A DNA stretch of 51,950 bases from Candidatus Parvarchaeum acidiphilum ARMAN-4 (GTDB lineage Archaea; Nanobdellota; Nanobdellia; Parvarchaeales; Parvarchaeaceae). Position numbers and translations under genes: made by a program. The stretch covers positions 1-51,950 of the forward strand of contig GG730042.1 of NCBI GenBank assembly GCA_002412065.1, given 5' to 3'. Shown in pieces: positions 1-24,701 of the stretch; positions within the stretch are counted from its first letter, which is position 1; every line of letters starts with the position of its first letter. A model generated the notes under the pieces. It had not been told where the DNA came from. It saw only the letters and a list, made by a program, of their open reading frames with translations, and searched no databases.

Positions 1-1067
1 ATGGGTTGATTGGATAGTGAAGCTCCAGTATAAACAAAACCAAGATCAGATGCATATCCTGTTATACTTATTACGTTTATTGTAGTACCACTTGGTCCTG
101 TAACACGTGAGGGAGCTCCAGTATTTCCTTCGAAATTGAAATCTGTTAAGGGAGTGTTTCCATTAAAATAAAGAGCAAAGACTTTTGCACCGTCATCGTA
201 TTCTGCATATGTTGATGATAGTTGGGGAGCTTCACCGTCGTTTACTGTGTTGAATAGATTTGTTGATGTTGGTGCTATTCCCATATAAACTGTTATTGAA
301 GAACTTGCAGGTATGCTGCCTAACTTAATCCACCAGATTGCACTGCTACCTGTATAACTTTCCAGCCATGAAGGTATAACTGTTCCGTTGCTGTAGAAAA
401 ATTCAACGTTTTGACCGAAATTGCCGTTGGATATAAGCTGCCAGCCGTTGTCTGCCGATGTCATGTTTACCATCTGCTGGAATGGATTTGATGTTGCTGA
501 ACTTTGAGTATTCTTTATTGTCAGCTTTGAGACTGCTGCAAAAGTGTAATTTGCTGGATATATTACTGTAGGTGTAGAGCCTGTTATACTGCCTGTCGAT
601 ACATATGGACCTGGTAATGGCTGGCTTATTTCCTTATAGGTTATTGTAACTGCTGTTGATATATGGGAACCTTGATTTGCTGCTGTAAACAGCTTTGATA
701 ATACTAAAACCTGTGATTTTCCTGGTAATAGGGTTATATTTGGCTCAATTGTTACTTTTCCTCCTGTTGTTGTAGTTGCTGTTATATTTGTTATTTCTAT
801 TGGATATCCTACCGAATTTTGTACTGATAATGATAAACCACCATTATCTGTAAAGATTGCTGAGGATACTGGAGTGCTTGAGAAGCCTGTTATTGTTGTT
901 GATATGCTTGATGATGGATTGAAGATACCCATGCTGTATAGGATTACTGCTACTATGACTATGATTAGGATAGCCCAGCCATAGGTCATCATGTACTCTA
1001 ATGCTGATTGTGATCTCCTTTTTGTTAAAAGAGTTAAATCCTTTTTGTTTAAGGCTTTAAATGACAT
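1..1067 (-). CDS. Class III signal (pilin-like) surface protein with DUF2341-like domain; 3' end runs off the window
   Basis: Not in the ORF track. Manual translation from ATG 1067: MSFKALNKKDLTLLTKRRSQSALEYMMTYGWAILIIVIVAVILYSMGIFNPSSS...NPFQQMVNMTS...GQNVEFFYSNGTVIPSWLE...NDGEAPQL, open to base 1. Paralog of 23163..24701. Confidence 0.85.
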   Translation of the reverse strand, partial: MSFKALNKKDLTLLTKRRSQSALEYMMTYGWAILIIVIVAVILYSMGIFNPSSSISTTITGFSSTPVSSAIFTDNGGLSLSVQNSVGYPIEITNITATTTTGGKVTIEPNITLLPGKSQVLVLSKLFTAANQGSHISTAVTITYKEISQPLPGPYVSTGSITGSTPTVIYPANYTFAAVSKLTIKNTQSSATSNPFQQMVNMTSADNGWQLISNGNFGQNVEFFYSNGTVIPSWLESYTGSSAIWWIKLGSIPASSSITVYMGIAPTSTNLFNTVNDGEAPQLSSTYAEYDDGAKVFALYFNGNTPLTDFNFEGNTGAPSRVTGPSGTTINVISITGYASDLGFVYTGASLSNQP

Positions 1068-1102
1068 ATTATTGGATGGAAAGTAAAGGATATAAATATT
1101 TC
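1048..1102 (-). repeat. Promoter/5' block shared with the paralog at 23128..23182 (inverted copy)
   Basis: Reverse complement GAAATATTTATATCCTTTACTTTCCATCCAATAATATG(T/C)CATTTAAAGCCTTAAA matches 23128..23182 with one mismatch. Contains TATA-like TTTATAT about 25 nt upstream of the ATG. Confidence 0.9.
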
Positions 1103-1205
1103 GCGGCTTACCTTATAGGCATTATAAATAATTAGGTAATTTATTTGTTTTTCTATTTTATTTCATTTTGGTAAGTTATTTAACATTTCCTTTACTATAT
1201 GAATA

Positions 1206-1919
1206 ATGCAAAATAATGACCCATTTGTGGACGTGGATGTAGGTAATATAATAGATGAATATTTAGAGGAAAAATCAAGGCCCAAAACAATCGGAGCATA
1301 TTATCCTAGTGAAATAGGCATGTGCATGCGTAGAAGCTATTACTCTTATTTTATATCAAAACCAACGGAAACCAGCGCACTCAGGATATTTGCCCTTGGA
1401 AATAACGTCCACGAATTTATAGCCAAGGCCCTTAAAGGGTCAAGTACTTTAGCCGTGGCAGAAGAAGAAAAACCTATAAGGATAACATATGCAGATGAAA
1501 ACACGAAATTCACAATATACGGTAGGATAGATGATTACATTGAGACAAAAACAGGCAAAAAGATAATAATAGAAGCTAAATCAACTGGCGATATCACAAA
1601 AGTAAACGAGCCGGATCCAAAACACAAGATGCAAATCTCATTGTATTTAGCGGCACAGAAAGCAGATTACGGCCTTTTAGTCTATGCAGACAAGAAAAAC
1701 TTAGAGATAAAACAGTTCAAGGTAGAATACAACGAAGAAGAGTACAAAAAAGTGATGCAAAGATTCAAAGACCTAGATTACCATTTAAGGAATGAGATAT
1801 TACCGCCCGCTGAATATTATTTTGACAATAAAAAAGTCTGGGAATGCAAGTACTGTCCTTATTACAAAGAATGCATGCAGGCTTTGGCGGATTCAAATTC
1901 TTTGGAGAATTATCAATGA
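1206..1919 (+). CDS. cas4: Solo Cas4-like PD-(D/E)XK (RecB-family) nuclease with Fe-S cysteines
   Basis: N-terminal PSEIGMCMRR, GRIDD...IIEAKS, HKMQISLY, and C-terminal WECKYCPYYKEC (1+3 Cys). Confidence 0.8.
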   Translation: MQNNDPFVDVDVGNIIDEYLEEKSRPKTIGAYYPSEIGMCMRRSYYSYFISKPTETSALRIFALGNNVHEFIAKALKGSSTLAVAEEEKPIRITYADENTKFTIYGRIDDYIETKTGKKIIIEAKSTGDITKVNEPDPKHKMQISLYLAAQKADYGLLVYADKKNLEIKQFKVEYNEEEYKKVMQRFKDLDYHLRNEILPPAEYYFDNKKVWECKYCPYYKECMQALADSNSLENYQ

Positions 1920-1923
1920 AAGA

Positions 1924-2301
1924 TTAGCTGCCTTTAACTTCTTTGTATACCTTTTTTACAGCGTCTAATCCAACAGTAGCGCATTTTACTCTTGAAATAC
2001 TTATATCTTCAATACCTAATAGACTTTCAACGTCTTTTAGTTCCATTTTTTCTATTTCCTTTAAAGGTTTCCCGATCAAGAAACTGCATAATTTTGACAA
2101 TGAGACTGTTGAGATTACACATCCTTTACCGTCGAAAGACGCATCTTTTACTATTCCATTTTCAACGTCTAGATAAACTGAAAACTTATCCCCGCAGGAA
2201 GGGGAATATCCATTCTCAGAGTAATTATATTTACTAAGTTTCCCATAATGCTCTGGGTTTCTGTATAGCTCTACCAACTCATAAAATTTATCGTCTTCCA
2301 T
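1924..2301 (-). CDS. sufU: Fe-S cluster scaffold/sulfur transfer protein SufU/IscU
   Basis: YRNPEHYG, PSCGD, GCVIS and RVKCA motifs; overlaps sufS. Confidence 0.9.
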   Translation of the reverse strand: MEDDKFYELVELYRNPEHYGKLSKYNYSENGYSPSCGDKFSVYLDVENGIVKDASFDGKGCVISTVSLSKLCSFLIGKPLKEIEKMELKDVESLLGIEDISISRVKCATVGLDAVKKVYKEVKGS

Positions 2302-3505
2302 ATTTCACTGCTATATTATTTAATTCCTCTATGAAAATATCTATTTCCTCTTTTGTGTTGTAAAAGTAAAGACTTGCCCTTGCGGCTCCATCTAATTTTA
2401 GCCTGTCTTCTATCAAAGGCTGAGCACAATGGAAACCAGATCTAACTGCGATTCCTTTTTTATCTAGAAGATAGGCAGTGTCATGTGAATGCAATCCAAT
2501 TACATTAAAAGAAAAAATTCCACTAAATCTTCTGCTCTTTCCACTGTATACCTCTACGTTTTTAAGTTCTTTTGCCTTCTCATACAGGTAAGTGGTAAGC
2601 TCATTTTCATATTTTTCTATGTTTTCCATACCTACTTTGTTTAGATAATCAACCGCCAAACCTAATCCATAAGCCCCTTCAATATTTTGTGTGCCTGCTT
2701 CAAAAAGATTCGGAGTGTTTTCATAGATTACTTTTGATAGACTAACATCCTTTATCATTTCACCCCCTGTTAAGAATGGCTTTAGATTTTCTGCTATGTC
2801 TTTTTTTATGTATAAAACACCTATACCGAATGGAGCAAGCATTTTATGGCCGGAAAATGCAACAAAATCTGCGCCAATGTTTTTAATATCGAATGGAATG
2901 TGAGGAACGGACTGGGCCGCATCTATTAACACTAGGGAACCCTGCTCATGTGCAAGCCTAGTTATTTCCTTTATGTCGTTTATTGTTCCGGTGACATTTG
3001 AAGCGTGGGTCAGTGCAACCAGGCGGGTATTTTTCGGCAGCTTCTTGTAATAATCCATGTCTAACTCATAATCATCTGATACTGAAACTATATCTACATT
3101 TACTCCTTTTTCTTTTAGCTGCAGCCATGGCAGAAGATTTGAATGATGCTCCATATAAGTAGTTGAAACTCTGTCCCCTTTTTTAAATGGAAAAGAAAAT
3201 GAAACCAGATTTATTGCTTCTGTTGTATTCCTTACGAAAACTATCTCTTCCGGCTCTGCATTTATGAAATCAGCAACCTTTTTTCTCGCTTCATTGTAAT
3301 TTTTTGTTGCTTCTTCAGCTAAACTGTGTATGCTCCTTATCGGATTTGCATTGATATTTTCATAGAAATATTTAATTCCGTTTATAACGGTTGAAGGCTT
3401 CTGTGAAGTAGCCGCATTATCTAAGTATACTAATTTATTGCCATTGATTTCCTTGCTCAAAATTGGAAAATCCTTACGTATTTTTTCTACATCAATATTA
3501 CTCAT
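2288..3505 (-). CDS. sufS: Cysteine desulfurase, SufS group II
   Basis: YLDNAATSQKP, EHHSN, FSGHKM (PLP Lys), RSGFHCAQP. Confidence 0.95.
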   Translation of the reverse strand: MSNIDVEKIRKDFPILSKEINGNKLVYLDNAATSQKPSTVINGIKYFYENINANPIRSIHSLAEEATKNYNEARKKVADFINAEPEEIVFVRNTTEAINLVSFSFPFKKGDRVSTTYMEHHSNLLPWLQLKEKGVNVDIVSVSDDYELDMDYYKKLPKNTRLVALTHASNVTGTINDIKEITRLAHEQGSLVLIDAAQSVPHIPFDIKNIGADFVAFSGHKMLAPFGIGVLYIKKDIAENLKPFLTGGEMIKDVSLSKVIYENTPNLFEAGTQNIEGAYGLGLAVDYLNKVGMENIEKYENELTTYLYEKAKELKNVEVYSGKSRRFSGIFSFNVIGLHSHDTAYLLDKKGIAVRSGFHCAQPLIEDRLKLDGAARASLYFYNTKEEIDIFIEELNNIAVKYGRR

Positions 3506-3549
3506 AGCACTACCTATACATTATTATTTATAAATATAACGCCGTTATA

Positions 3550-4188
3550 TTAATCCAATAAATCTAAAACTGAAATCTTTCCGCAAATTGACAAAGCCGT
3601 TTGATTTTCAAAAGCTTTTTTCATAGCAAGCATGGTAAGTGTAAAATCGGATTTTACTGCTTCCTTAAATTCTCCTGTGTCACCATTCATTCCTGTTGGT
3701 ATGTCTATGCTGATTTTCTTAGCCTGTGAATTATTTATTAAATCAATTAAATCGGATACTAAAGGTGGCAGCTCTCCATGGAAACCCATACCAAATATAC
3801 CTACAACTAAAAGATCAGCATTGGAAACGCTGTCTTTTATTTTAATTAAATCTGCAGGATCAGAAAGGAATTTTACAGGAACGCTTTTTGTATCATTTAG
3901 AAGGTGGATAAAGTTGTCTGACTCTTCCTTTAAACTATCAGGTTTGCCAACGACAAAAACCTCTAAATCAAAATGATTTAAATTAAACAGATGAAACGCT
4001 GTAGATAGTGTATCGCCGCCATTATTTCCAGGCCCTGCTATGAAAACTGCCTTCTTGAATACTAAGTTTTTAACAATAAAATCCGATGCGAGATGCCCAG
4101 CGGTGTCTATCATCTTTTCTTCTGTCATCCCTTTTCTTATTGCTTCCTGCTCTATTTTCCTTATATCGTCTATGCTGTAGTATTCCAT
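3550..4188 (-). CDS. nnrE: NAD(P)H-hydrate epimerase (stand-alone YjeF N-domain)
   Basis: GPGNNGGD, GIFGMGFHG, SIDIPTG motifs. Confidence 0.85.
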   Translation of the reverse strand: MEYYSIDDIRKIEQEAIRKGMTEEKMIDTAGHLASDFIVKNLVFKKAVFIAGPGNNGGDTLSTAFHLFNLNHFDLEVFVVGKPDSLKEESDNFIHLLNDTKSVPVKFLSDPADLIKIKDSVSNADLLVVGIFGMGFHGELPPLVSDLIDLINNSQAKKISIDIPTGMNGDTGEFKEAVKSDFTLTMLAMKKAFENQTALSICGKISVLDLLD

Positions 4189-4296
4189 GTTTTATATACT
4201 GCAGTAATTCTATTAATTTGTAGTTGTGGCCTTTGTATAATTTGGATATAAATAAAATCTAGAAAGTGTTTGCTTACGTTATAGCTAAAATATAAT

Positions 4297-5433
4297 TTAA
4301 ATTGCTATGTGCAGATAAACTGAAGCAAGATGTCCTACTAGGAAAGTCACAAACGCAGCAGTTAAACTAAGAAGCAACGCTCTTCCAACATACCTAAAGA
4401 CTTTCTCATTGGAGTTTAATGCTATTATCAGCGACGTAAAGGCAATTGCTATTGAAGCTAAGACAACTGATATGACTAAGTTGTAGTAAGTGTTAGATTT
4501 TATAATGGAACCTATAAGGAAACTTATCAGCGGGATAATTGCACCGAATACATAAAAAACGCCTACATACAAAGCATCCTTGAATGGATTCACAGAATCG
4601 TTGCTTGTGTAAACCTTGCCATTCCCACCTATAAAATTCTTTAAAGGGTTGTCTCTTTCGCGCTCAAGCACTTTATAAACTGGATCTTTTTCCTTTTTTA
4701 ATTTTAATATCAAATCCTCCAAGCCTTTGTCAAATTTTTTATAGTTCAAGGAATGCCTCTCTAAATCCTCCTTTAATCTTTCTTTAGCAACCTGTAACTC
4801 CAGCTCTAAGCGGTTTATTCCGCTGAACTCCAGATCTTTTTCAGATTTTGAAGAAAGATAGGCACCAACGGCCATTGAAATCGTGCCTGATAAACCTACT
4901 ATGGTACCAGCAACTGCGATAAGCAGGTTGTTATGTATAGCTCCTGTGAAACCTGCGACTGCGGCCAAGAACTCTACTAATCCATCATTCATCCCAAAAA
5001 CTACATCTCTTATGTGGGATAACACGCCGTTCTCCCAGGATTCCTTTTTAAGTAACCTTTCCTGATACATCTCTTCCACTAAATAGTCCACGACTTTTTC
5101 TCTTTGTTTGTTTGGAATATCTTGAAAAACCTTTGATAGATCCGACATCTTTCTTGTTTCAAGGGAATTTATCAAGCTTAATGTTAAGCCGCTACCAAAT
5201 AGCCTTCTTAGCAGGACAAAAAGGAAAACTTCAACTTTGTTTTTATTTTCCTTGACGGATATGTTCAGTTCTTTGTATATCTCTGTCCATACCTTAATGT
5301 GCTTTACGTCAAGCTCTTTAAGCTCCTTGAGCTTCTTTTTCATCTCTTTGTTTCTTTCAAGTCTCTCAAGTTTTGAATAAAGCTGATAAGACAATCGTTC
5401 TGAGTTCAAAACCTTTTTTATTTCATCCGACAT
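4297..5433 (-). CDS. VIT1/CCC1 family Fe/Mn transporter with N-terminal ferritin-like domain
   Basis: IRDVVFGMNDGLV, SMAVGAYLSSKSE and C-terminal TM helices; rubrerythrin-like N-terminus. Confidence 0.85.
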   Translation of the reverse strand: MSDEIKKVLNSERLSYQLYSKLERLERNKEMKKKLKELKELDVKHIKVWTEIYKELNISVKENKNKVEVFLFVLLRRLFGSGLTLSLINSLETRKMSDLSKVFQDIPNKQREKVVDYLVEEMYQERLLKKESWENGVLSHIRDVVFGMNDGLVEFLAAVAGFTGAIHNNLLIAVAGTIVGLSGTISMAVGAYLSSKSEKDLEFSGINRLELELQVAKERLKEDLERHSLNYKKFDKGLEDLILKLKKEKDPVYKVLERERDNPLKNFIGGNGKVYTSNDSVNPFKDALYVGVFYVFGAIIPLISFLIGSIIKSNTYYNLVISVVLASIAIAFTSLIIALNSNEKVFRYVGRALLLSLTAAFVTFLVGHLASVYLHIAI

Positions 5434-5474
5434 GATTAATCAAAACCTACCTTTAAAATATAAATTTATTCTAA

Positions 5475-5810
5475 CTAGCCGGTAAATGGATGGGTCGGCT
5501 TAGACTTGTCAAAAAATCCCTTGTACTTGTCCCATATCTGCTGGCCGGCCTCTTGCGAAAGAATATCTGTTACTGTTTCTGGCCGCATGAAAACACCCTG
5601 CGCTTGTATAAGTCCATTAAAACGTACTATAACAAAATCATCGTCTTTTGGATTTACATTCCCTATCTCGCATGTTATTATGTTATTATCCCACATTTCT
5701 ATGACTGCTTTTTGTTTTTTATCCACGTTTTTAGAATTGTTTTTGTTAATTACCTTAACGATCTTTCCAATGTGATAAAATACCAATTCCTTTGCTTTTT
5801 TTTCTTCCAT
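5475..5810 (-). CDS. Hypothetical protein (small, beta-rich)
   Basis: ATG-started 111-aa ORF with natural composition; overlapping + strand ORFs look like shadows. Confidence 0.65.
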   Translation of the reverse strand: MEEKKAKELVFYHIGKIVKVINKNNSKNVDKKQKAVIEMWDNNIITCEIGNVNPKDDDFVIVRFNGLIQAQGVFMRPETVTDILSQEAGQQIWDKYKGFFDKSKPTHPFTG

Positions 5811-5963
5811 CTTAATAAACTATAATTTTTTTAATATTAAACGCTATTGTTTATTGCAATTTATGCTTTATTAACCTTGTCTAAAAATTATATTTAAGGA
5901 ATATTAAATAGCTTTTCGCAGGGGTTTAAATATAAATATGACAAAAGGTATTACTTCTTTATT

Positions 5964-6281
5964 GTGGAAACAAAGCCTTTTGTGAAAAAACAAAATGTGA
6001 TGAGGAATACTGACATAACTGCTGAACCTGGCAAAGAATTTGTGTTTAGGTTAAAAGATGGAAAAGAAGTTGGCAGGGCCGGCACATTAAATGGCTTTGA
6101 AAGCCTGATAAGGACTTTGCCTTCGGACTCTTTGGAATTTCATAATAATGGAAAACACTTTTCAGCTTGGCTACGTTACCTCAAGCAGGATAAAATCGCA
6201 AATGCGTTTGACAGGATAGACTCAAAAGGAGAACTATTAAGAAAAGACTTATTAAATGCTATAAAACTTAATAAATTATAA
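5964..6281 (+). CDS. DUF5752-like small protein
   Basis: FVFRLKDG..A.TL..F...I..LP.DSLEFH...HFSAWL pattern. Confidence 0.6.
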   Translation: METKPFVKKQNVMRNTDITAEPGKEFVFRLKDGKEVGRAGTLNGFESLIRTLPSDSLEFHNNGKHFSAWLRYLKQDKIANAFDRIDSKGELLRKDLLNAIKLNKL

Positions 6282-6599
6282 TTTACAGTCTAAAGTAGAA
6301 TTATAGCCGTGTGGATAATCCAACATAAAAACTTTCTTCCCGTCTTTAGCTTTGCAGGAATAAACATAGAAAGGAATAGAATCGGACCAGCCTTGATATC
6401 TTCTCTTGTCAATCTCTACGAACCCCCTCAACGCAAGTTTTAAAGCCTTTATATAATTCAATTTAATCTCTTCAAATTCTTGTGTAGCTTTGTTATAGAC
6501 TTTGACTTTATGTCCTGTTATATAAGTCTTATCCAATAAACTATCCAAATTTGGATTGTACCAAATTGACATTCTTGTCATAAAATTTGATGAAAACAA
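6276..6599 (-). CDS. Hypothetical protein
   Basis: 107-aa ORF with GW..IPFY.YSC...YPHG...C pattern; true start may be a downstream ATG. Confidence 0.6.
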   Translation of the reverse strand: MFSSNFMTRMSIWYNPNLDSLLDKTYITGHKVKVYNKATQEFEEIKLNYIKALKLALRGFVEIDKRRYQGWSDSIPFYVYSCKAKDGKKVFMLDYPHGYNSTLDCKL

Positions 6600-6728
6600 C
6601 TAATATTTAAACCTTTATTTGCATTTTTACATGAAAAGACCATTAACTTAAGATTATTGCTTATTAAACAAACCTCAAAATAGTAAATATAGATAGCCTT
6701 TCAATTCTTAAAAATCTTTTAATCAACA

Positions 6729-8027
6729 CTAATTGGTAAGGTTTAATTCTTCTTTTATTATAAGCTCTGCCTTGTTTATTATTGATGGAGAAAAGGCAAT
6801 GTTTAATTCCCTTGTTCTACCGTATCTCCCGTGGCTTTTTATACGGGACATTACCAAAGAATTATAATCCATGTCTGCAATCAAATCTGAAACTCTTCTA
6901 AATGTCAAACTTTTCAGGCCAAATTTATCTGAAAGCTTTAAGTATGCATCATAAACCTCGCCGCTGTATACTTTTCCCATTCTTTTAGTTCTTGCGACTG
7001 AGATTATAGAGAGAAGAATACATTTACTCTGCCTAGTCATTGATTTTATCATGCCTTCAGTTATGTTTTGCTCAAGTGATTCCGCTGCTGTATCAAGTTC
7101 TTCTTCAGTTATTATTGATTTCCCCAGCTGCTGTGTTCTCTCACCGGCAACCTTCAACAAGTCCAAAGCTTTTCTTATGTCACCGTGCTCCTGGGCAACC
7201 ATTGCAGCGCATTTCCTTAAAACCCCTTCATTCAATGCATTATCATAAAATGCATCTTTAGAGCGGTTTAATAGAATATCAAATATTTCATCTGCATTGT
7301 AAGGCCTGAATATTATCTCTACAGGATTCAAAGAGCTCCTTACTCTCTGATCTAATGATGCTTTAAGATCGATGTTGTTTGAAATTCCGATTATTGCGAT
7401 CTTTGCGTGTTTCAAGGATTCATTCAACCTCAAAAGGCTGTATAATACTCCATCGCCTGCATGCTGTATAAGCTTCTCTATTTCATCCAATACTAGTATA
7501 AGATATGTACTCTCTGCATCTATGGTTTTGACAAGTCTTTTGTATAGGCTGTTAACTGAAAGGCCGCTTTCCGGGACATTTATATTGAAGACAGCACAGA
7601 GATTTGCAATAAGCCTGTATTCAGTGTTATTGTTTTCCAGTCTGCAGTTTATGTAAACCGGAAGCACGTTCGCTTTTTTCTCTTCTGCCGAACTTGCCAA
7701 TTTTTTAGCAACAAATTTTGTTACCAAAGACTTGCCTGTTCCTGAAAAGCCGTATACCAACACATTGGAGATTCCTTCAAACAACAGACTTGGGGCCATT
7801 ATCCTTGAAAGAGTTGCTATTTCATTGTTCCTGTGCATTATGCCTTCCGGGACAAATGAAGAAGACAACACATCTTTGTTCTTGAATATGCGCTTGCTGG
7901 TAAGAAACTCATTGAATATGGCAATAGGATCAACGTTGCTTATTTTATCTGTATCTGTTTTCTGGAAAAAATCATTATTGGATTGAAAGGCTTCCATATG
8001 TTCGTAAATTATTCTATCTTTACTCAT
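6729..8027 (-). CDS. cdc6: Orc1/Cdc6 replication initiator
   Basis: Walker A GFSGTGKS, YINC, Walker B LVLDEIE, RVRSSL, FRPYNADE, GDIRKALD, C-terminal wHTH with GRYGRTR. Confidence 0.95.
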   Translation of the reverse strand: MSKDRIIYEHMEAFQSNNDFFQKTDTDKISNVDPIAIFNEFLTSKRIFKNKDVLSSSFVPEGIMHRNNEIATLSRIMAPSLLFEGISNVLVYGFSGTGKSLVTKFVAKKLASSAEEKKANVLPVYINCRLENNNTEYRLIANLCAVFNINVPESGLSVNSLYKRLVKTIDAESTYLILVLDEIEKLIQHAGDGVLYSLLRLNESLKHAKIAIIGISNNIDLKASLDQRVRSSLNPVEIIFRPYNADEIFDILLNRSKDAFYDNALNEGVLRKCAAMVAQEHGDIRKALDLLKVAGERTQQLGKSIITEEELDTAAESLEQNITEGMIKSMTRQSKCILLSIISVARTKRMGKVYSGEVYDAYLKLSDKFGLKSLTFRRVSDLIADMDYNSLVMSRIKSHGRYGRTRELNIAFSPSIINKAELIIKEELNLTN

Positions 8028-8135
8028 TTAAATAACTATTATTAATTTTAATTATGTCATTCTAATTATATAAACTTAATCACAGTGATTGAAACATAAT
8101 TTTGCTTTATAAATTCATTTAACTAAAAACACAGA

Positions 8136-8349
8136 GACACCTACGTTTCTTATGGAGAATCATCTAAATAATTTTTTATACTGTTTAATCCTATATATAT
8201 CTATATATTCTATATAGAATTATAATAAATATAATAATAAGGCTTCCATAGGAAATATAGGGGTGTTCCATAGGAAATAATTTTCATCAAAGCAGCTCGA
8301 TTGTAAGTCAAATGCAACGACGGTTTGTTCCATAGGAAATAGGGGTGTC
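8136..8349. promoter_or_regulatory. Putative replication origin (oriC): ORB boxes flanking an AT-rich DUE
   Basis: Direct boxes TTCCATAGGAAATATAGGGGTGT (8244-8266), GTTCCATAGGAAATA (8265-8279) and GTTCCATAGGAAATAGGGGTGTC (8327-8349). Inverted box at 8136-8157 reads CTCCATAAGAAACGTAGGTGTC on the minus strand. Nearly pure A/T at 8160-8240. Adjacent to cdc6. Confidence 0.88.
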
Positions 8350-8449
8350 CCTGTACCCCATATATATAGTATTCTTTACTACTAAATAAAAGTAATTTGA
8401 TAGAAAGCTTTAAATATGAGTAACTTCCATAAACTTAAATCAAAAAATT

Positions 8450-11229: not shown

Positions 11230-11234
11230 GATAA

Positions 11235-13209: not shown

Positions 13210-13245
13210 GCGCAATCCTCTTACTAGACATTAAGTGACTAAATT

Positions 13246-16199: not shown

Positions 16200-16242
16200 C
16201 TATAAAAGATAATATTTTAATGATGGAAAAGCTTATAATCAA

Positions 16243-16596: not shown

Positions 16597-16746
16597 AAAA
16601 TAATATTTTAATAAAAATCTGTTTTATGCAAAGAAAAGATATAAATTAGCAAATACAAATAGTTTTATGGTTGCAGAATTAAATTTCAGTTTTAGATCTG
16701 AAAAAATAAATTGTTTTCTAACCAAGGAGGGAAGCCTCGAATAGCT

Positions 16747-17538: not shown

Positions 17539-17604
17539 CTACCTATCAAAGGGTTAAAACACTAATTACAATAAGTTTTTATACCTTAAAAAATTCAATC
17601 TTAT

Positions 17605-18357
17605 ATGGGAGTTTTAAAGCTCATATTTTATGTTATAGTGGCTATAATCGTTTTTTCATTGATATCTACTTATATAATAAACATAAATGCACCGGAGGTT
17701 GCCGGCCTTATAGGGCAGTCTGCGCTTTCTTTCTTTAAGAGTGCCACATCAAACAATACAATGGTTTCGAATGGTGCTAATTTTTCGTATCCTGGTAACT
17801 GGCTTATTTTTTCCCCATCAGTTATAAATGGAGTTCCAATATTGTCGCAGAACAACAGCGGTTCAAAAATTATATCAGGTGAACTAACAAATTCATCAAT
17901 ATCTATAATATTGCCAAATTCATACATTTCAAATATTGTTGAAGACATACCAAGTGTTATTTCCGGCGCGATTTCAAAGAATCTGAGTCTTGCAAGCATA
18001 ACCAAACTTGCAAAGAATGTTGATTTAGTTCTGGTGGCAGATTTTAATATCCCGGCCAATTTTTCAAATGCTACTAACATAAATCAAGTAAGTAGTTTCT
18101 TAGATGCATTCAAAATAAGCACTTTGAATAATTCAAACATAAACTTATCTAACCAAAAAGGGATTTTAATAACAGATAGGAATGTAAGAATTCCCCAGAT
18201 AGAAAACCTTTCATTTGCATATGTTAAAGTTGCAATTGCAATTACTGGGAAAACAGTTTGCATGGTCTTTGGTTTAGCATCCGAGAACAGCTCTATAAAC
18301 AATGTAAACATCGGTTTTAGGAGAGTAACTGAAAGTTTAAAGTGCAAAGAAAGTTAA
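17605..18357 (+). CDS. Membrane-anchored extracellular protein
   Basis: N-terminal TM helix, FSYPGNW motif, many N-glycosylation sequons. Confidence 0.7.
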   Translation: MGVLKLIFYVIVAIIVFSLISTYIININAPEVAGLIGQSALSFFKSATSNNTMVSNGANFSYPGNWLIFSPSVINGVPILSQNNSGSKIISGELTNSSISIILPNSYISNIVEDIPSVISGAISKNLSLASITKLAKNVDLVLVADFNIPANFSNATNINQVSSFLDAFKISTLNNSNINLSNQKGILITDRNVRIPQIENLSFAYVKVAIAITGKTVCMVFGLASENSSINNVNIGFRRVTESLKCKES

Positions 18358-18388
18358 TTCTAACCTTTATAAAAACAATAATTTTAAT

Positions 18389-18460
18389 TGGAGCTAGAGG
18401 GATTTGCACCCTCACCGTCACGAGCTTCAGTCGTGTGCCCTCCTATTGGGCGATAGCTCC
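18389..18460 (-). tRNA. tRNA-Phe(GAA), intronless, CCA not encoded
   Basis: Minus strand GGAGCTA-TC-GCCC AATAGGA GGGC-A-CACGA CTGAAGC TCGTG-ACGGT-GAGGG TGCAAAT CCCTC-TAGCTCC-A; all four stems pair. Confidence 0.93.
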
Positions 18461-18565
18461 AAGATTATGATTACTTGATTAATATTAATAATTATACTCG
18501 CTCAAGAGTTTTTTATAAATTAAATCAATGAACTTAATATAAATGTGAAATTCTTATAAAAGGCA

Positions 18566-19600
18566 TCATTGAAATGAGAATTTGCATACTTCATCATTTA
18601 TGGCTGAGCATTCTTTTTCATTTAATCTAAGCATTGTTCCAGTAATCTTGTACGAAAGACTGGACAGTATACTTCCCAACAAAAAGCATCTTTTTTCAAT
18701 CGCATCATCAATATGCAAAGCATTAAATGAATTGTAGACATCAACCTCCAACAGGTAACCCAAATCATTTTTTAAGGTTGTTATCTTTCCAAAACCGCTT
18801 AATATAGATATTACACTTAAATCCATAATACCATATTTTTCTTTTATTAGCTGCAGATTGTACTGTTGATAAAGTTTTGCAAGTTCTTTCCCAGCCTGGT
18901 TTTCGATACCATATACACCCTGGCCTATTATCTTTCGTAATTTACTAAAAAGATATGGGAAGTAAACTACAGGTATTATTTCAGAGGGTATTGAATTTAT
19001 GAAGATATCCGTTTCGTCATTAGTTATCTCAATCTTCTTTAGTTTTTCATTTTTCTCGTCAAATACCTGCGAAGGTATATATGTATATTCATCCTTTGTT
19101 TCTTTTACATTAATATTGAAATAATCCGTATCAGCGTCTCCTGTGCTTCTGCATTTTTCTTCCGTAACTTCAACGTCTTTGTTAGTTATAATCCTGTAAA
19201 TCCCTGTTAGTAAGCCAATACTATTAAAACAATATGGAGAGTTTGTGATAATGTTCAAAAATGAGTTCATATTTCCGTCTATGCTTATTTTATAATTTCT
19301 TAAATCACTTGATATTTTATTTATCCTACCTATCCCAAGTTCTTTGAATAATGTGAACATCTCTATCTCGGTTTTTTCTTCGCCTCTTATCTTTAAGCTT
19401 TTTCTTTTTATCAAATCCTGTAAAAATGAGTAGAAAACCGTCGATGAAACCTCTTGAAATATGCTTTTAGTGGCAAGCCCCAATATAATGTTTACTGAAT
19501 TTTGTATTGATTCAATGCTGCCTTTAGGTAATACAAGGACTCTAATCTTGTTTAATAGATAAATCCCTCTATCTTCATCGTATTCTAACTCTCAATCCAT
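18566..19600 (-). pseudogene. Tandem V4R-domain protein with in-frame TGA at codon 3 (nonsense mutation or sequence error)
   Basis: ATG GAT TGA GAG TTA GAA TAC... reads MD*ELEYDEDRGIYLLNKIRVLVLP, in frame with ORF 18566..19483. V4R motifs C...G..EEKCRSTG and C...EKECSA...CKF. Confidence 0.7.
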
Positions 19601-19627
19601 ACATTTAGATAATTTCGCAAAATTTAT

Positions 19628-20440
19628 ATGCTTTTAAATATTAAAATTATGATGGCAACTTTGAAATTTAAGCTTAATACACTTATTTATATGTTTGTTG
19701 CCCTGCTTGCAGTAATAATAATAGCAGTATTATATATAGTGTTTTTTGTAAATGGTTCTGCAACAAAGAGTATTGGTAATAATTGGTTTAGTATAGACGG
19801 CGCAGCGCCAATAATTAATAATGGCAAACTATGGGTTAATTTTGCAGGGATAGAAGGTTGTGAGTACTGTGCAATAGAAAGATATGCACTATTTGATGCA
19901 CTGAGTAATTTTGGGAATTGGACTTATTACGGAAAATCTTTAGATATCAACACTTTGCCGGTAACAAATTATTCTCAAACTCCTCAGACAAATACTTTTT
20001 TTTATCATGCATATGAAGGAGATTGGACCTTGAATTTCCTTAATCCGCACCTTCTATATACATCAAATTACATAAATTTTACCTCGGAAGAGCTTTACAA
20101 TGATCAGTATCCAAATCCTTCTCCATTGCAGTCCTTTACACCTATCGAAGATAAGTATGCAACAAAATATGACCCACAAGGAGCTGTACCTTTCTCATTG
20201 ATAGGGGGCAATTTCTTCGAGGTGGGGGCTGGATCAAGCCTTGTCAACAACGGAGTTCCTATTATATTTGCAGCAAATGGGATAGGGTATATACCAAGCT
20301 ATATAATAGGCCAATTTAATATTACGGGTTCAGCTATAAACAAAGGAATAACCCAAGAGGCAGATTATATAACCGCAATGATATGCCAAGACATAAAGAA
20401 TGCTGCTCCAGTCTGTTCCGAATCGCTGCCAACGGTTTAA
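19628..20440 (+). CDS. DUF929 family membrane-anchored thioredoxin-like protein
   Basis: TM anchor, GIEGCEYCAIERY..ALSNFG, YDPQGAVPF..IGG, ITAMIC...APVC. Confidence 0.8.
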   Translation: MLLNIKIMMATLKFKLNTLIYMFVALLAVIIIAVLYIVFFVNGSATKSIGNNWFSIDGAAPIINNGKLWVNFAGIEGCEYCAIERYALFDALSNFGNWTYYGKSLDINTLPVTNYSQTPQTNTFFYHAYEGDWTLNFLNPHLLYTSNYINFTSEELYNDQYPNPSPLQSFTPIEDKYATKYDPQGAVPFSLIGGNFFEVGAGSSLVNNGVPIIFAANGIGYIPSYIIGQFNITGSAINKGITQEADYITAMICQDIKNAAPVCSESLPTV

Positions 20441-20486
20441 TCTAGAAAATAATTACTTTTATATACAAACAGATACTTTATATGTT

Positions 20487-21053
20487 ATGGCATTAGCACC
20501 AGTTGCATTCGCTATTTCTGCTTTCTCTGTAGCTGCTATAATTTCAGGTATAAACCTAAAACAAGCTAGCAAAGACAAAACAACTGCCAAAACTTTGGGT
20601 GTTATAGTTACTTTGGCTGGAATCGCGATATTTATGGCTTCATTACTCATGATAACTACAACTCCTTACGGAAGCAGTTATCCTGCGGCCAACGTTCAAT
20701 TGATGTTTTCACTTCTAATGCTAATATTTGCATTTGTGTGGATAACTTTTGGGATGACTTTATTGTATAACTGGGACATGAAATTCATAGGAGATATGAC
20801 TATGGTCCTTTTTGTATTTAATTTAATTGCAGTTATTGCATTGTTCTTCTGGAATTCAGGTTATGCTGTTTATAGCCTTGCGGATTTCGCAATAGTGGAA
20901 ATAACCTTAATCTCCTACTTATTTGATGAAGTAGGGTTCTTTGCGCTCACTCATGGCAAGATGAAAGCTAGTCTGCAATCAGGTTTTCTAATTGCGTCTG
21001 GTGTCCTTTCAATATTGCTCGCAGTGACTGCAAGTGGGATAATCCCTTTGTAG
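20487..21053 (+). CDS. Six-TM membrane protein, possibly an AmiS/UreI-like channel
   Basis: About six hydrophobic helices; LIFAFVWITFG...WDMK resembles the UreI/AmiS pattern. ATG 20487 preferred. Confidence 0.55.
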   Translation: MALAPVAFAISAFSVAAIISGINLKQASKDKTTAKTLGVIVTLAGIAIFMASLLMITTTPYGSSYPAANVQLMFSLLMLIFAFVWITFGMTLLYNWDMKFIGDMTMVLFVFNLIAVIALFFWNSGYAVYSLADFAIVEITLISYLFDEVGFFALTHGKMKASLQSGFLIASGVLSILLAVTASGIIPL

Positions 21054-21060
21054 ACAGATA

Positions 21061-21067
21061 GGAGGTG
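21061..21067 (+). promoter_or_regulatory. Shine-Dalgarno site
   Basis: GGAGGTG ending 6 nt before ATG 21074. Confidence 0.7.
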
Positions 21068-21073
21068 TTTTAA

Positions 21074-21727
21074 ATGGTTAGCGTTAAATGGTTGGGTCAT
21101 GCTGCATGGCTTACCACTTTCAAAGATACAAAAATAATAATTGATCCATTTCTTACAAATAATCCAAAGGCAGCAATGAAAGCCGATGATGTTAAAGCAG
21201 ATATGGTTCTTGTTACACACAACCATTTTGATCATCTTGGTGATGCATTTAGTATTGCAAAGAGAAACAATGCAAAATTAGTAGGCAAGTTTGAGCTTTC
21301 TTTAGATGCTCAAAAAGCAGGTATACCTGACGCAAATGCAATTGGCATGAATATAGGCAGTATGGCAAAATTCGGTTCCTTAGAAATCGCGATGGTTCCA
21401 GCGATACACAGCGGTAATGAAGGAGGGTTTATCATAAAAGGAGATGGTAAGACGATATATCATGCAGGAGATACAGCTTTGTTTAGTGATATGCAACTAA
21501 TAAAAAAATTATACAAGCCAGATATTGCTATGCTTCCAATTGGAGGCTTTTTCACAATGGGCCCAAATGAGGCTGCAATAGCTGCCAAATACATAGGTGC
21601 AAAGATAGTATTCCCAATGCATTACAATACTTTTCCTCCGATAGCACAGGATGCAAATAAATTCGCTAAGATGGTTAAAGGTTCAAAAGTAATTGTATTA
21701 GAACCCGGACAAGAAAGAGAGATTTAA
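21074..21727 (+). CDS. Metallo-beta-lactamase fold hydrolase (UPF0173)
   Basis: WLGHA, IDPF, THNHFDH, YHAGDT, PMHYNTF. Confidence 0.9.
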   Translation: MVSVKWLGHAAWLTTFKDTKIIIDPFLTNNPKAAMKADDVKADMVLVTHNHFDHLGDAFSIAKRNNAKLVGKFELSLDAQKAGIPDANAIGMNIGSMAKFGSLEIAMVPAIHSGNEGGFIIKGDGKTIYHAGDTALFSDMQLIKKLYKPDIAMLPIGGFFTMGPNEAAIAAKYIGAKIVFPMHYNTFPPIAQDANKFAKMVKGSKVIVLEPGQEREI

Positions 21728-21801
21728 ATCTTAATTTTAAATTACTGCACAGATTAGAAGCGGTTGAAAGTTATTAATACTACCTTTCTTCATTTGATTT
21801 A

Positions 21802-23046
21802 ATGGTAGAATACCACAAACATAAATTAGAAAATGGTTTGGAGGTCCTATTAAGCCCAAATAACTACCTACATAGTGCTTCAATTACCGTAGGCTTTAAA
21901 TATGGTCTTTTTAATGAAAGAAATGGAGAAACAGGAGTTTCCCATTTAATAGAGCATACAGTTTTTGAAGGTTCAAACAAAATAAACCATAAGAAGGTAA
22001 AAGATTTTTTAGAAAATAAGATGAATTATTATAACGGAGAAACTCACGATGAAATGACAATTTACAGCTTTAAATTTTTTGATCTTTCAAAATATGAGAA
22101 GGTATTCTATACGCTATCAGAGATGCTTTTTGATTCTTCTTTTCTAGAAGATAGTATAAAAAAGGAAAAAAATGCAGTCATAAACGAGGTACAGAGTAAA
22201 TTCGATTCGGAAATTCAATTAGATGCTACTATAGCAAGAGCATACATGTTTAGAAAGCCTGTTTTTACATTTTTAGGAGGGAATCCTAAGGTAATAGACG
22301 GTTTATCACGAGAAACTATGCTTGATTTATATTCAAAATACTATGCCCCTAATAATGCAGTTATATCCATAACAGGCAACTTCAATTCTAAAGACATAAT
22401 GTCCGGCATAAAAAATTATTTTGAGAGTATAGAAAAAGCCAATGCGAAACCAAAATTAGAAGTTTATACTGGTAGAACTGCTTATAAAAATATACATTTA
22501 AAGAGTTTCAATATCTACAAAGGCCAATCATCATTAGTATTTGGAATCAAACTACCCGGCGCGTACCAGATATATAATAAAACGGAAAGGGGCAGAGCAG
22601 CCATAGTCTACCTAACAGATTTGCTGTCTGGTAATCTAATGAGGGTTCTACGTGAAAAGACTGGATTAGCTTATTCTGCTGGAGCCGAATTTCATATTGG
22701 AATGCATACTGGAAATTTAATGCTGTATACAGTCGTTAACAACAAAGATTTTGAAGAGGCTAAGAGTTTAATATTTGATGAAATCGACGACATAGCAGCT
22801 GGAGAATTGGATGAAAAACCACTACAAAAAGCAAAACAAGAACTAAAGCTGAATATTGCAGACTTGGTTGATGATAGCTTTGATCATTCTCAAGCCCTAG
22901 TGAGGGGTAAACTAAACTATGGAAAGGACATAAATGAATTATATCGCGAGTCAATGAAACTCAGCCTGGATGATTTAAGGGAAGCAGCAGCGAATTATCT
23001 CAAAAAAGAAGGACAAGATAACTCAGTTCTTGTTACATCAAATTAA
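21802..23046 (+). CDS. M16 (pitrilysin) family zinc peptidase
   Basis: GVSHLIEH inverted Zn motif, EKNAVINE, LREKTGLAY. Confidence 0.9.
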   Translation: MVEYHKHKLENGLEVLLSPNNYLHSASITVGFKYGLFNERNGETGVSHLIEHTVFEGSNKINHKKVKDFLENKMNYYNGETHDEMTIYSFKFFDLSKYEKVFYTLSEMLFDSSFLEDSIKKEKNAVINEVQSKFDSEIQLDATIARAYMFRKPVFTFLGGNPKVIDGLSRETMLDLYSKYYAPNNAVISITGNFNSKDIMSGIKNYFESIEKANAKPKLEVYTGRTAYKNIHLKSFNIYKGQSSLVFGIKLPGAYQIYNKTERGRAAIVYLTDLLSGNLMRVLREKTGLAYSAGAEFHIGMHTGNLMLYTVVNNKDFEEAKSLIFDEIDDIAAGELDEKPLQKAKQELKLNIADLVDDSFDHSQALVRGKLNYGKDINELYRESMKLSLDDLREAAANYLKKEGQDNSVLVTSN

Positions 23047-23127
23047 TCTTAGAGTTTATAAATTCGCTTTAAAATTTAATCAAGGTTTTTATTACTATTG
23101 GAATTAGATTATATAATCGATTAACAT

Positions 23128-23182
23128 GAAATATTTATATCCTTTACTTTCCATCCAATAATATGCCATTTAAAGCCTTAAA
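23128..23182 (+). repeat. Promoter/5' block shared with the paralog at 1048..1102
   Basis: 55-nt match with one mismatch to the inverted copy. Confidence 0.9.
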
Positions 23183-24701
23183 TAATAGAGAAAAAGATAA
23201 AGCAGAACGTTCTGACATATATTCACACACTAAGAACTTAACTTTTACAGTAAAAACCAAGCGTTCTCAGTCAGCCTTAGAGTATATGATGACTTATGGT
23301 TGGGCTATCTTAATAATAGTCATAGTAGCCGTTATCCTCTATTCAATGGGTATCTTCAACCCAAGTTCAAGCATAACTTTTACAAGCTCTGGATTTTCAC
23401 CATTTACAGTATCCTCAAGCTTATGCAATAATATAGGATACAAAATAGCAGTATTGGCAGGTCCAATACCAAACAATGCAAATTCACTGACAATCAATAA
23501 AGTATACTTAACATCAGCAACAGGAGCTAACACAACAACAGCCAGTTATACATTGACAAACCCAGTAACATTGAAAAGCGGTCAGTCAGCAACAATACTA
23601 ATACCAAATGTTGCCTGTAATTCAGCAAATATCCATTATTCCTTATCAGCAAAAATACAGTACAGCTATGATGTTCCTACAATAGGCTTGCAAAATGTAA
23701 ATACAACAGGAACAGTGGCAGGAACCTCTATAACTGGAAAACCATCAACTTTAACAAGCTATGAACCAATAACCATAACTAACAGCCAAAGTTCAGCAAC
23801 TCCAAGTCCATTCCAGCAGATGGTTAATTTCACATCCTCAGATAACGGGTGGACAAGCATTTCAACAGGCAATTTTGGACAGAATGTAGAGTTCTTCTAT
23901 TACAATGGAACAGTTATACCCTCATGGTTAGAAAATTACACATCAACAAATGCAATTTGGTGGCTGAAGATAGCAGCTATACCTGGAGGCTCATCAGAAA
24001 CAGTCTATGTAGGTTTTGCTCCAAAAGCTACAAATCTATTCAACACAGTAAACGACGGTGAAGCTCCTCAATTAACATGTCCAAACCCTAATGATATTAT
24101 TTCTTGTTCTACCTATGCAAAATATGATGATGGCTATTATGTGTTTAATGGGGCAAATTCTTATTATGATAATTTTATAAACAATGCTAATTTATCTCAG
24201 TGGCAAGCCGGTTCTCCATTTCAAGGTGGTAATATGCCTTATGCAGATAATGGTTTATGGATGAACACGAATGTGTCAGGTGCACCCGTTGATTTTCATC
24301 TCCCTATAAATTTTAATTTTAACAATGCTTATTTTATAACTTATGGCAGTGGATATAACACCTCGGATTTATATTTAAGATGGGGCTATGGAATTTTGCC
24401 CGCTAATCCGACTGCCTATATAGCATCTGTTAATTTTTTTGTTGCAGCAAATGATTCATATGGTTATGGTACTTCATTTACTGATGACGTAAACTCTACA
24501 TATTATTTTTATTATGAAAAGGGAGTTTATTACGCCGTATCACCAACACAAAAGGTAAGTTTAACTTTACCAGATGCCGATTTGTCATCACTACAACTAG
24601 CAGGGCAATTGAATAGTGGAAATGCATACTGGGCGTATGTGGCGGTTGCTAATGTGCCAAATAATGTTATGCCAACCGTAAAATTTGGGGCAGTAAATTA
24701 A
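23163..24701 (+). CDS. Class III signal (pilin-like) surface protein with DUF2341-like domain and variable C-terminus
   Basis: KRSQSALEYMMTYGWAILIIVIV, PFQQMVN, NVEFFY.NGT.IPSWLE, NDGEAPQL, C-terminal PNNVMPTV. Confidence 0.85.
   Translation: MPFKALNNREKDKAERSDIYSHTKNLTFTVKTKRSQSALEYMMTYGWAILIIVIVAVILYSMGIFNPSSSITFTSSGFSPFTVSSSLCNNIGYKIAVLAGPIPNNANSLTINKVYLTSATGANTTTASYTLTNPVTLKSGQSATILIPNVACNSANIHYSLSAKIQYSYDVPTIGLQNVNTTGTVAGTSITGKPSTLTSYEPITITNSQSSATPSPFQQMVNFTSSDNGWTSISTGNFGQNVEFFYYNGTVIPSWLENYTSTNAIWWLKIAAIPGGSSETVYVGFAPKATNLFNTVNDGEAPQLTCPNPNDIISCSTYAKYDDGYYVFNGANSYYDNFINNANLSQWQAGSPFQGGNMPYADNGLWMNTNVSGAPVDFHLPINFNFNNAYFITYGSGYNTSDLYLRWGYGILPANPTAYIASVNFFVAANDSYGYGTSFTDDVNSTYYFYYEKGVYYAVSPTQKVSLTLPDADLSSLQLAGQLNSGNAYWAYVAVANVPNNVMPTVKFGAVN
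24030..24067 (+). repeat. 38-bp identical block shared with 226..263 (inverted)
   Basis: ACAAATCTATTCAACACAGTAAACGACGGTGAAGCTCC in both paralogs. Confidence 0.9.

Follow-up and report, generated by a model that had tools for sequence, protein, structure and literature searches.

The stretch of DNA considered here, referred to as the window, comprises the first 51,950 bases of contig C5 in the genome of Candidatus Parvarchaeum acidiphilum ARMAN-4 (791,488 bases in 44 contigs, 72.7% complete). It carries two genes for pilin-like adhesins, here called gene A and gene B, which lie on opposite strands (Table 1). The initial annotation placed two genes with class III signals at 1-1067 and 23163-24701 and took their products to be type IV pilin-like surface proteins of a DPANN archaeon. 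Both descriptions hold, except that the open reading frame (ORF) of gene A runs off the start of the contig at position 3. Gene A is truncated because C5 starts inside a family gene, and no orphan C-terminal piece that could be the rest of it was found in the genome. The two genes are probably members of a genus-wide family with about 20 copies per genome, in which recombination on an evolutionary scale has shaped a repertoire of pilin adhesins.

When the two genes are compared module by module, the degree of similarity changes abruptly along their length. A 55-mer covering the promoter and the start of the gene is shared with one mismatch, and a repeat finder lists inverted pairs of 58 nucleotides (nt) at 97% identity (1045-1102 vs 23128-23185), 167 nt at 75% in the helix region and 307 nt at 75% in the DUF2341 region. 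The leaders are identical at 12 of 19 residues. The helix that follows is the same protein in both genes (35/35 residues) while 18 of its 105 nt differ. Domain A, between the helix and the DUF2341 block, has only 35 identical residues among 121 aligned and was rightly called unrelated in the initial annotation. The DUF2341 block is again conserved, with 76 of 102 residues identical and 74.5% DNA identity. The Pfam model for this domain (PF10102) has a gathering cut-off of 23.4 bits, which gene A exceeds with 27.5 bits and gene B misses with 21.7 bits. At the start of the tips, 24 of 65 residues agree.

Table 1. Features of genes A and B and of the surrounding part of the window. Positions are those of the window unless a contig is named; aa, amino acids.
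Feature	Position	Strand	Remarks
Gene A	3..1067	-	pilin-like adhesin with DUF2341 head; 355 aa seen, 3' end cut by contig start
Gene A family promoter block	1065..1102	-	BRE/TATA-like AAATATTTATAT, conserved spacer, ATG about 27 nt past the TATA centre
Gene A leader	1011..1067	-	19 aa, type MSFKALNKKDLTLLTKRRS
Gene A mature N-terminal helix	906..1010	-	QSALEYMMTYGWAILIIVIVAVILYSMGIFNPSSS; predicted cleavage after KRS
Gene A domain A	525..905	-	type A3
Gene A DUF2341 block	219..524	-	C-terminal end NLFNTVNDGEAPQL
Gene A 38-nt junction block	226..263	-	same as 24030-24067 and C10:20388
Gene A tip	3..218	-	first 72 aa only
Gene B family promoter block	23128..23165	+	
Gene B	23163..24701	+	pilin-like adhesin ORF
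Gene B long leader	23163..23267	+	35 aa; short (AT)3 and (CA)3 tracts near 23215-23231
Gene B mature N-terminal helix	23268..23372	+	protein identical to gene A helix
Gene B domain A	23373..23768	+	type A1; about 88-90% DNA identity with 5 other paralogs
Gene B DUF2341 block	23769..24074	+	
Gene B 38-nt junction block	24030..24067	+	
Gene B tip and stop	24075..24701	+	208 aa
PD-(D/E)XK (Cas4-like) nuclease gene	1206..1919	+	divergent from gene A promoter
Orc1/Cdc6 gene	6729..8027	-	
Intergenic stretch with short repeats	8028-8449		possible origin

Close to the end of the DUF2341 block the two genes share 38 nt as exact reverse complements in the window. For this pair the run is longer than expected by chance within the 306-nt block (permutation p 0.0006 for columns, 0.002 for codons and 0.003 for synonymous state only), these being single-pair values uncorrected for the other 104 of the 105 block pairs. 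The initial annotation connected the 55-nt and the 38-nt identities with recurrent gene conversion or recombination, and this part of it is not supported in the form given. The 55-mer is no trace of recent exchange between genes A and B. It consists of a promoter block, present in 13 family genes and conserved in other species, plus a shared leader start, and the whole 55-mer is also found exactly at C38:14292. The 38-mer belongs to a junction common to the family, and it recurs exactly at C10:20388 and with one mismatch at C2:24196. A role for the 38-mer as a dedicated hotspot at the nucleotide level was also considered and rejected, as codon identity at positions with identical amino acids is no higher in the junction than elsewhere in the 15 DUF2341 blocks of the genome.

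A change in codon usage within gene B was also pointed out in the initial annotation, and it is clearly present. Third positions have A 0.42-0.54 and T 0.25-0.27 in domain A and DUF2341, changing to A 0.26 and T 0.51 after 24074, and at four-fold sites A likewise falls from 0.62 to 0.39. The shift is, however, common to the whole family and not particular to gene B. At four-fold sites the parts from leader to DUF2341 have A 0.59 family-wide, while the tips, with A 0.39 and T 0.40, are like ordinary genes of the window. It is thus the cores that are unusually A-rich, and the T-rich tip was rejected as a foreign import special to gene B. The contrast may come from expression-linked codon choice over the 5' two-thirds or from tips with a different history.

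A search of the whole genome found 20 loci with a Q-S-A-L-E-Y class III signal followed by a hydrophobic helix. The family occupies at least 2.7% of the genome DNA. Five contig ends (the start of C5 and the ends of C7, C10, C24 and C43) fall inside family genes. All 24 other genomes of the genus that were searched contain family matches, 3-33 in each. Other families of the class were represented by 16 genomes, four of which gave no match and the remaining 12 gave 1-4. Members begin with a leader of 4 to about 50 aa ending in K-R-S or similar. The helix QSALEYMMTYGWAILIIVIVAVILYSMGIFNPSSS comes next and is followed by a domain A, of which there are several unrelated types. The head is either a DUF2341 block with a variable tip ending in RAYPPNGVMPSVSFGS, or a LamG tail ending in WWPLDGNANDYS. 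A Pfam scan of 13 further members assigned Laminin_G_3 to five and DUF2341 to five (four above the cut-off), and neither to the remaining three. A conserved junction motif, NTVNDGEAPQ[LI], precedes the variable C-terminal module.

The 35 aa of the helix are identical in 13 of 19 copies although the mean DNA identity is 0.846, which argues for selection at the protein level. Homogenisation of the helix by recent conversion was considered and rejected, since the protein is identical but DNA identity within the genome (0.846) is close to that between genomes (0.815). One protein departs from the common plan. It has 1394 aa (C39:36397-40581, L110:398-4582, minus strand), and its divergent class III-like N-terminus is accompanied by five nearly identical repeats that contain Cys, and by a tandem pair of DUF2341-plus-tip units that both close with PPNGVMP. 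These tandem units suggest that DUF2341 and tip form one structural unit.

The family members also share the sequence in front of the gene. An upstream alignment displays AAATATTTATATCCTTTACTTTCCATCC(A)AATAATATG before most copies, and a pattern of about 38 nt reaching from TATA to ATG is found 13 times in the genome, each time directly before a family gene, with no match in a reversed control. Of 30 further genomes of the genus, 10 contain variants of the promoter. In related genomes the same TATA part is combined either with this spacer or with a second type, CCCTCGTTTTTATATAAAT; the second type has four copies in one genome, a third variant has three copies in another, and both types occur together in two genomes. 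The block differs at 0-4 of its 38 bases while about half of the synonymous identity has been lost in the adjacent helix, and nearly every base of it must therefore be held by selection. Judged by its layout, the block may consist of a BRE/TATA promoter, a regulatory spacer and a leaderless mRNA start about 27 nt past the TATA centre. It probably is a common regulatory site.

The different modules have different histories. Further copies of the shared blocks and discordant module trees were what the initial annotation expected of recombination, with congruent trees and no other copies as the signs of a simple duplication, and it is clearly the former that is observed: promoter and 38-mer recur elsewhere among the 20 loci, and the trees of core and tip are incongruent. 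All four combinations of two leader types with two domain A types are found in the genome. The MHTTNITNHLN leader stands before A1 at C7:13993-15555 and before A2 at C38:14368-15507, while the MLFNYLD leader is found with A2 at C4:34205-35347 and the related MPFNYLD leader with A1 at C10:15725-17278. Similarly, domain A types A1 and A4 occur in all four combinations with the junction types IPCGSTPTSSC and LSSTYAEYDDG.

In a core tree of 49 rows, built from the region from helix through DUF2341, the six A1-type paralogs of this genome form one group, and the paralogs of four other genomes also pair by genome. The tips of four of these six genes, which are complete and in frame and were used for the approximately unbiased (AU) test, are at most 31% identical over their length. 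The tip of C4:35477-37099, on the other hand, has a counterpart in another species with 94% identity over 229 aa, where the cores are only 45% identical. At the DNA level this match is 89.3% over 885 nt; it starts within DUF2341 and extends as far as the stop codon. The cysteine desulfurase and Orc1 of the partner species are 65% and 64% identical to those in the window. A second case is C39:2450-3949, where the tip is 93% and the core 54% identical to a gene of a second donor genome (DNA 85.3% over 749 nt). The cysteine desulfurase of that donor shows 63% identity, and the query used did not retrieve an Orc1 from it. The AU test on core data rejects a clade of the C4 gene and its tip partner (p 4e-8), and on tip data it rejects a clade of the four genes that have the same core (p 2e-34). 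Support for the C4 gene and its partner as a pair in the tip tree is 99.9.

The cores are themselves mosaic. The six A1 cores (807 nt) have 201 polymorphic sites, of which 106 are informative, and 52% of the site pairs fail the four-gamete criterion. The pairwise homoplasy index (PHI) test gives p 0.0004, and concordant runs are longer than in shuffled data in 14 of 15 pairs (p<0.05), or in 7 of 15 after Bonferroni correction. Exact runs of up to 125 nt are shared between paralogs. Gene A has an 86-nt exact run, from its leader into the start of the helix (to about 990), in common with a truncated copy at C38:24313-24483 and a 56-nt exact run across its junction in common with C7:63561-64637, and the nearest row to its core (domain A plus DUF2341) in the core tree comes from another species, at 68% aa identity. 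The modules common to paralogs have 88-93% DNA identity, and the visible exchanges must therefore be old.

The same variation is seen among catalogued proteins. Twenty-two have a core 82.5-97% identical to that of gene A (229 aa), and their tips fall into 18 types when clustered at 70%; they have three junction forms and, judged by eye, about a dozen leader forms. The best match to most of the 72-aa tip piece of gene A among these proteins is 54% identical (57 aa), and matches of 67-78% span only the conserved junction start of about 18-20 aa. The tip of gene B is rare, with only two clusters among about 5.8 billion catalogued proteins. Members of the second are 69% identical and have the same GEAPQL motif ahead of the tip, but a quite different N-terminal part.

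A possible exchange at the helix is found in the separately deposited scaffold L021. It matches window 1653-861 at 96.1% over 794 nt, covering the nuclease gene and the promoter, leader and helix of gene A, and then continues at 99.8% as the A1-core gene of C7 (C7:63576-64642), so that here the nuclease gene adjoins a different family gene. L021 may represent a true allelic replacement at the helix or a rearranged allele, or it may be a chimeric scaffold. Two further observations concern the same scaffold. In L021:1-2522 the segment C7:62789-63254 is inverted relative to C7, with 21 nt common to both alignments at the joint, and a partial copy of the same C7 gene (C7:63881-64271), also inverted, lies upstream of the nuclease gene.

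These patterns probably arose through ordinary homologous recombination and gene conversion, for which RadA is present (C7:16289-17008). Four conserved parts would serve as homology arms: the promoter with the beginning of the leader, the helix, the stretch from the DUF2341 end through STYAEYDDG..VFN, and the strand at the C-terminus. Across them leaders, stalks and tips have probably been re-assorted repeatedly, both among paralogs and between Parvarchaeum species. The exchange may have an antigenic or a host-range purpose. RadA is encoded about 700 nt from the family gene C7:13993-15555 and less than 10 kb from a cluster of pilus ATPase and platform genes, which is probably coincidental.

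The initial annotation went further and proposed that recombination recurrently swaps adhesin tips. That tips, cores and leaders have been exchanged is borne out by the mosaics, but recurrent active switching is not, since the shared modules are at 88-93% DNA identity and neither a site-specific recombinase nor a reverse transcriptase was found in the incomplete genome. Active programmed variation, in which frequent gene conversion or an inversion spanning the replication origin (oriC) swaps tips within a lineage, as in Neisseria pilE/pilS or a shufflon, would agree with the inverted arrangement of genes A and B, which share a 58-nt repeat at 97% and an exact 38-nt repeat, the latter longer than chance for the pair, and with the five contig ends inside family genes. 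It would also agree with the joint in L021 between the flank of gene A and a different core, although the two parts of that scaffold differ in identity (96% vs 99.8%) and it may be chimeric or mis-binned. Such a process is improbable in a family where 13 copies have a promoter of their own and no single expression site is accompanied by silent cassettes, and where shared modules are not near 100% identical and the longest exact run is 125 nt. Moreover, the 72.7%-complete genome gave no match to Phage_integrase (tyrosine) or Resolvase (serine) recombinases, and none to RVT_1, the reverse transcriptase that marks a diversity-generating retroelement. A mosaic produced by the assembly or binning, with the assembler switching between paralogs or co-occurring species at shared k-mers, is equally hard to believe. 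It draws on a fragmented metagenome assembly with redundant contigs, on the exact runs of 50-125 nt between paralogs, on helix words that form very short and very deep unitigs in two runs, and on the contigs that break in family genes. However, where two species have a tip in common its DNA identity is 85-89% and thus short of 100%, and such tips are surrounded by unrelated flanks and cores, a pattern that chimeras from co-assembly therefore cannot give. A stretch of 5083 nt with two tandem family genes is also 99.94% identical in a separately deposited genome (L035), and at least 0.67 of the sampled words of the gene B region are present in 18 public runs from several studies (2011-2023, mine drainage and tailings, one run recorded as RNA). 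Combinations of core and tip also vary in the 22 independently catalogued proteins. An ordinary old duplication with domains diverging at different rates and no exchange is scarcely credible and already contradicted. The copies are indeed old, as helix synonymous sites are about half saturated, and fast binding domains beside slow structural ones are common; yet the module trees are incongruent, leader and domain A types as well as domain A and junction types occur in all four combinations, one tip is far more similar between species than housekeeping proteins are, and the PHI and run tests are significant.

Some points weigh against an origin of the repertoire by exchange of modules between pilin genes. 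Pairing of the C39 gene with its partner (L056) in the core tree was not rejected (p 0.14; one of three pairings), and the groups for the AU tests were picked post hoc, being named after the similarity table had been seen. Synonymous sites in the junction are family-wide no more conserved than in the rest of DUF2341, which gives no ground for regarding the junction as a special site of recombination. The evidence consists of assembled sequences and predicted models, and read unitigs gave no cover at the one locus where they were compared, a (CA)9 locus on contig C24 (L105): with four runs, two gave none and two gave unitigs of 31-49 nt in the helix only, in a comparison that skipped the repeat itself and was confined to that locus, genes A and B lying outside it. 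The assembly, with its 44 contigs, incomplete content, some redundant contigs and paralogs with exact runs to 125 nt, is such that a part of the fine mosaic in the cores could be due to assembly path-switching. As to the pilin identity, there was no match to Class_IIIsignal (PF04021) in Pfam at E up to 0.1 and no NCBIfam pilin match, only sub-threshold ones, and the pilin assignment thus builds on motif and context. A prepilin peptidase (Peptidase_A24) was not found in this 72.7%-complete genome. Of 30 further genomes of the genus, 28 encode this enzyme, among them all eight of high quality, and its absence here probably reflects the incompleteness. Taken with these points, we nevertheless regard the finding as real, and the family is best seen as a large set of modular pilin adhesins on which general homologous recombination, also between species, has acted.

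The N-termini agree with what is known about archaeal pilins. The archaeal class III signal has a charged leader, G, A or S at position -1 and cleavage before a hydrophobic H-domain of about 20 aa, and some of these signals have Q at +1 together with E at +5 (PMC4371748; this and the other papers cited are drawn on in excerpt). All 20 loci read ..K-R-S|Q-S-A-L-E-Y.. followed by WAILIIVIVAVILY, with S at -1, a charged residue at -2 and the predicted cleavage site ahead of the H-domain, in agreement with the published description. The genome encodes pilus ATPases of the T2SSE type at C7:24116-24811 and in the window at 37552-38268, and T2SSF platform proteins at C7:25577-25951 and C7:26410-26778. 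The second ATPase, for secretion or pilus assembly (755-aa ORF, minus strand), thus lies away from the ATPase-platform cluster on C7. With the helix essentially invariant, every copy could in principle be incorporated into a single pilus-like filament, assembled by the C7 ATPase and platform proteins.

An ESM Atlas model of gene B has a predicted template modelling (TM) score of 0.73. When predicted models are compared, residues 195-512 (window 23745-24698) give a TM of 0.84 to a Parvarchaeota DUF2341 cluster and 0.50-0.51 to bacterial proteins with DUF2341 and Laminin_G_3, while a profile search against solved structures returned no match at E up to 1. Together, DUF2341 and tip resemble a single concanavalin-A-like jelly roll, in which the first half is conserved, the middle varies and the last strand, RAYPPNGVMPSVSFGS, is conserved again. 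Incorporation into a pilus, lectin-like binding and a role in attachment to host cells or surfaces would be in keeping with these features. The same residues of gene B also match a 347-aa cluster from mostly Taleaviricota, which are filamentous archaeal viruses (TM 0.82 by query and 0.76 by hit). Going by the models, these viruses may use the same head as a receptor-binding part.

Some of the leaders contain simple repeats. Long leaders have (TA)n(CA)n tracts that read IYSHTHT.., and 13 leaders have (CA)4 or more (n = 4, 4, 4, 4, 4, 5, 6, 7, 9, 9, 10, 12), three of them with no in-frame upstream ATG. Leaders of the form ..IYSHT(HT)nTKHL.. are in frame at n = 4 (L096, L072 and L090), n = 7 (L040) and n = 10 (L019). 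In this genome C10:19516-19794 and C24:3691-4656 have n = 9 and no in-frame ATG, and both are one CA unit from joining an upstream ATG. The C10 copy is a decayed pseudogene, while its ortholog in another species has n = 12, flanks identical over about 320 nt and an intact mature protein of 475 aa, also with no in-frame start. Two further genes, C7:13993-15555 and C38:14368-15507, have their promoter-proximal ATG out of frame and open instead at one lying 41 nt downstream of it. Across assembled genomes one thus finds frame-setting tracts near the 5' end of the coding region and length variants between close relatives. The (CA)n tracts put some intact copies out of frame, in a pattern resembling that of slipped-strand contingency loci, and this may be phase variation. 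In bacterial contingency loci with simple sequence repeats, the repeat length in the 5' coding part of surface-protein genes sets the frame, and surveys of phase-variable loci in archaea are treated as future work in the excerpted source (PMC11868660). Compared with these, the Parvarchaeum (CA)n tracts are known from the comparison of assembled genomes alone. If they do switch genes, phase variation would be extended to Archaea. That the family is an archaeal repertoire of contingency loci, combining on/off switching by (CA)n slippage with head exchange, also between co-occurring species, and co-regulation by the shared promoter, is a tentative idea that we consider rather unlikely. Were it true, a DPANN symbiont would have phase variation and would also vary its antigens or host range in the way that bacterial pathogens do. 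A separate observation at the C10 locus is that C10:19300-19640 and G012:C10 (L112 and L113) are identical between species over the roughly 320 nt of flank, leader and helix start except for (CA)9 vs (CA)12, and that identity past this stretch is 89% with 12 gap openings, which adds one more break in similarity close to the helix.

DPANN archaea spend their lives attached to other cells; the molecules by which they choose and hold their partner are, to our knowledge, largely unknown. Exchange of heads among copies and species together with a fixed assembly helix is the pattern expected of determinants of attachment specificity, and the family may mark where the specificity of symbiont attachment lies. 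The tips and the QSALEY N-terminus are concrete targets for studies of contacts between Parvarchaeum and its host, and the family is a natural case for studying recombination in ultra-small archaeal genomes.

In mechanism the family is comparable to several known systems in which exposed C-terminal modules are exchanged at a conserved junction. In the R64-type shufflon the minor pilin adhesin PilV has a constant N-terminal part and alternative C-terminal tips that determine partner specificity, and a dedicated recombinase acts on specific inverted sites in a single gene. The Parvarchaeum family differs in that it consists of many full genes, no site-specific recombinase was found in the incomplete genome and exchange apparently takes place by general homology. 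In Neisseria, gene conversion between pilE and pilS changes the exposed part of the pilin and leaves the N-terminal assembly part constant; there is one expressed locus with promoterless silent cassettes, and exchange occurs at high frequency. In contrast, 13 of the Parvarchaeum copies have a promoter, no cassette arrangement was found and the exchanged tracts are old (88-93%). What defines the shufflon and pilE/pilS, namely a recombinase, silent cassettes and near-identical donor tracts, is thus not found in this family. The Neisseria system is described as one of pilin antigenic variation (PMC4877100). In the Parvarchaeum family, as in the polymorphic toxins, a motif, here NTVNDGEAPQ[LI], divides a conserved body from diverse, laterally exchanged C-terminal modules. 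In toxins such as CdiA-CT and Rhs, a conserved motif similarly marks where the exchangeable C-terminal module starts. Polymorphic toxins occur in archaea (PMC6393860). Unlike them, the Parvarchaeum modules look like binding heads, have no immunity genes and are not clearly found as orphans.

The nearest archaeal precedent is the set of type IV adhesion pilins PilA1-PilA6 of Haloferax volcanii, which are also paralogous, have a nearly fully conserved H-domain and are encoded apart from the assembly genes; each of them is able to enter the same pilus (PMC4371748). Parvarchaeum differs from this in having about 20 copies in 0.8 Mb, encoding proteins of 350-540 aa with predicted lectin-like heads in place of small pilins, and having a shared promoter block and shuffled modules. 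The DUF2341 proteins of archaeal clade-1 type IV pilus loci, of which there are two large ones inside the pilus locus, have been likened to PilY1 and proposed to be adhesins at the pilus tip (PMC4858521). In Parvarchaeum, DUF2341 is instead fused behind a pilin helix, multiplied and dispersed, and its tips are exchangeable. No description of the family or its shuffling was found in the full-text literature searched, where subscription journals were outside the scope and supplements may list the genes. The excerpted text of a paper on Parvarchaeales genomics mentions only pilin archaeal clusters of orthologous genes (arCOGs) (PMC10134863).

The initial annotation described genes A and B as inverted around oriC. 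This is plausible but weak: the Orc1/Cdc6 gene lies between them, and the curve of cumulative GC skew dips only slightly near 8-9 kb, with a further minimum near 20 kb. In the assembled sequences no inversion between the two genes was seen. A family gene on C7 (C7:63151-64637, L100) is split by a frameshift just past ..VFNYYQ, with the N-terminal frame at 63561-64640 and the tip frame, which ends in YPPNGVMPSVSFGSVA, at 63151-63729. The frameshift is also present in the separately deposited scaffold L021 and is therefore not a one-off sequencing error, but a real pseudogene or a programmed shift. Some small contigs of the assembly are 99-100% identical to portions of larger ones, and redundant or variant pairs are C14 and C15 vs C13, C29 vs C4, C44 vs C6 and C18 vs C9. 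In C44 two segments of C6 are joined in another order and orientation. The assembly may thus contain variants from different strains, or bins that were duplicated.

The representative of the gene B cluster (P0003, 493 aa, from a contig of 52,523 nt) is without 19 residues of domain A, SATGANTTTASYTLTNPVT. The corresponding 57 nt (window ~23508-23564) are flanked by two copies of TAACAT, and the sequence suggests that P0003 is a variant in the population that arose by a microhomology deletion.

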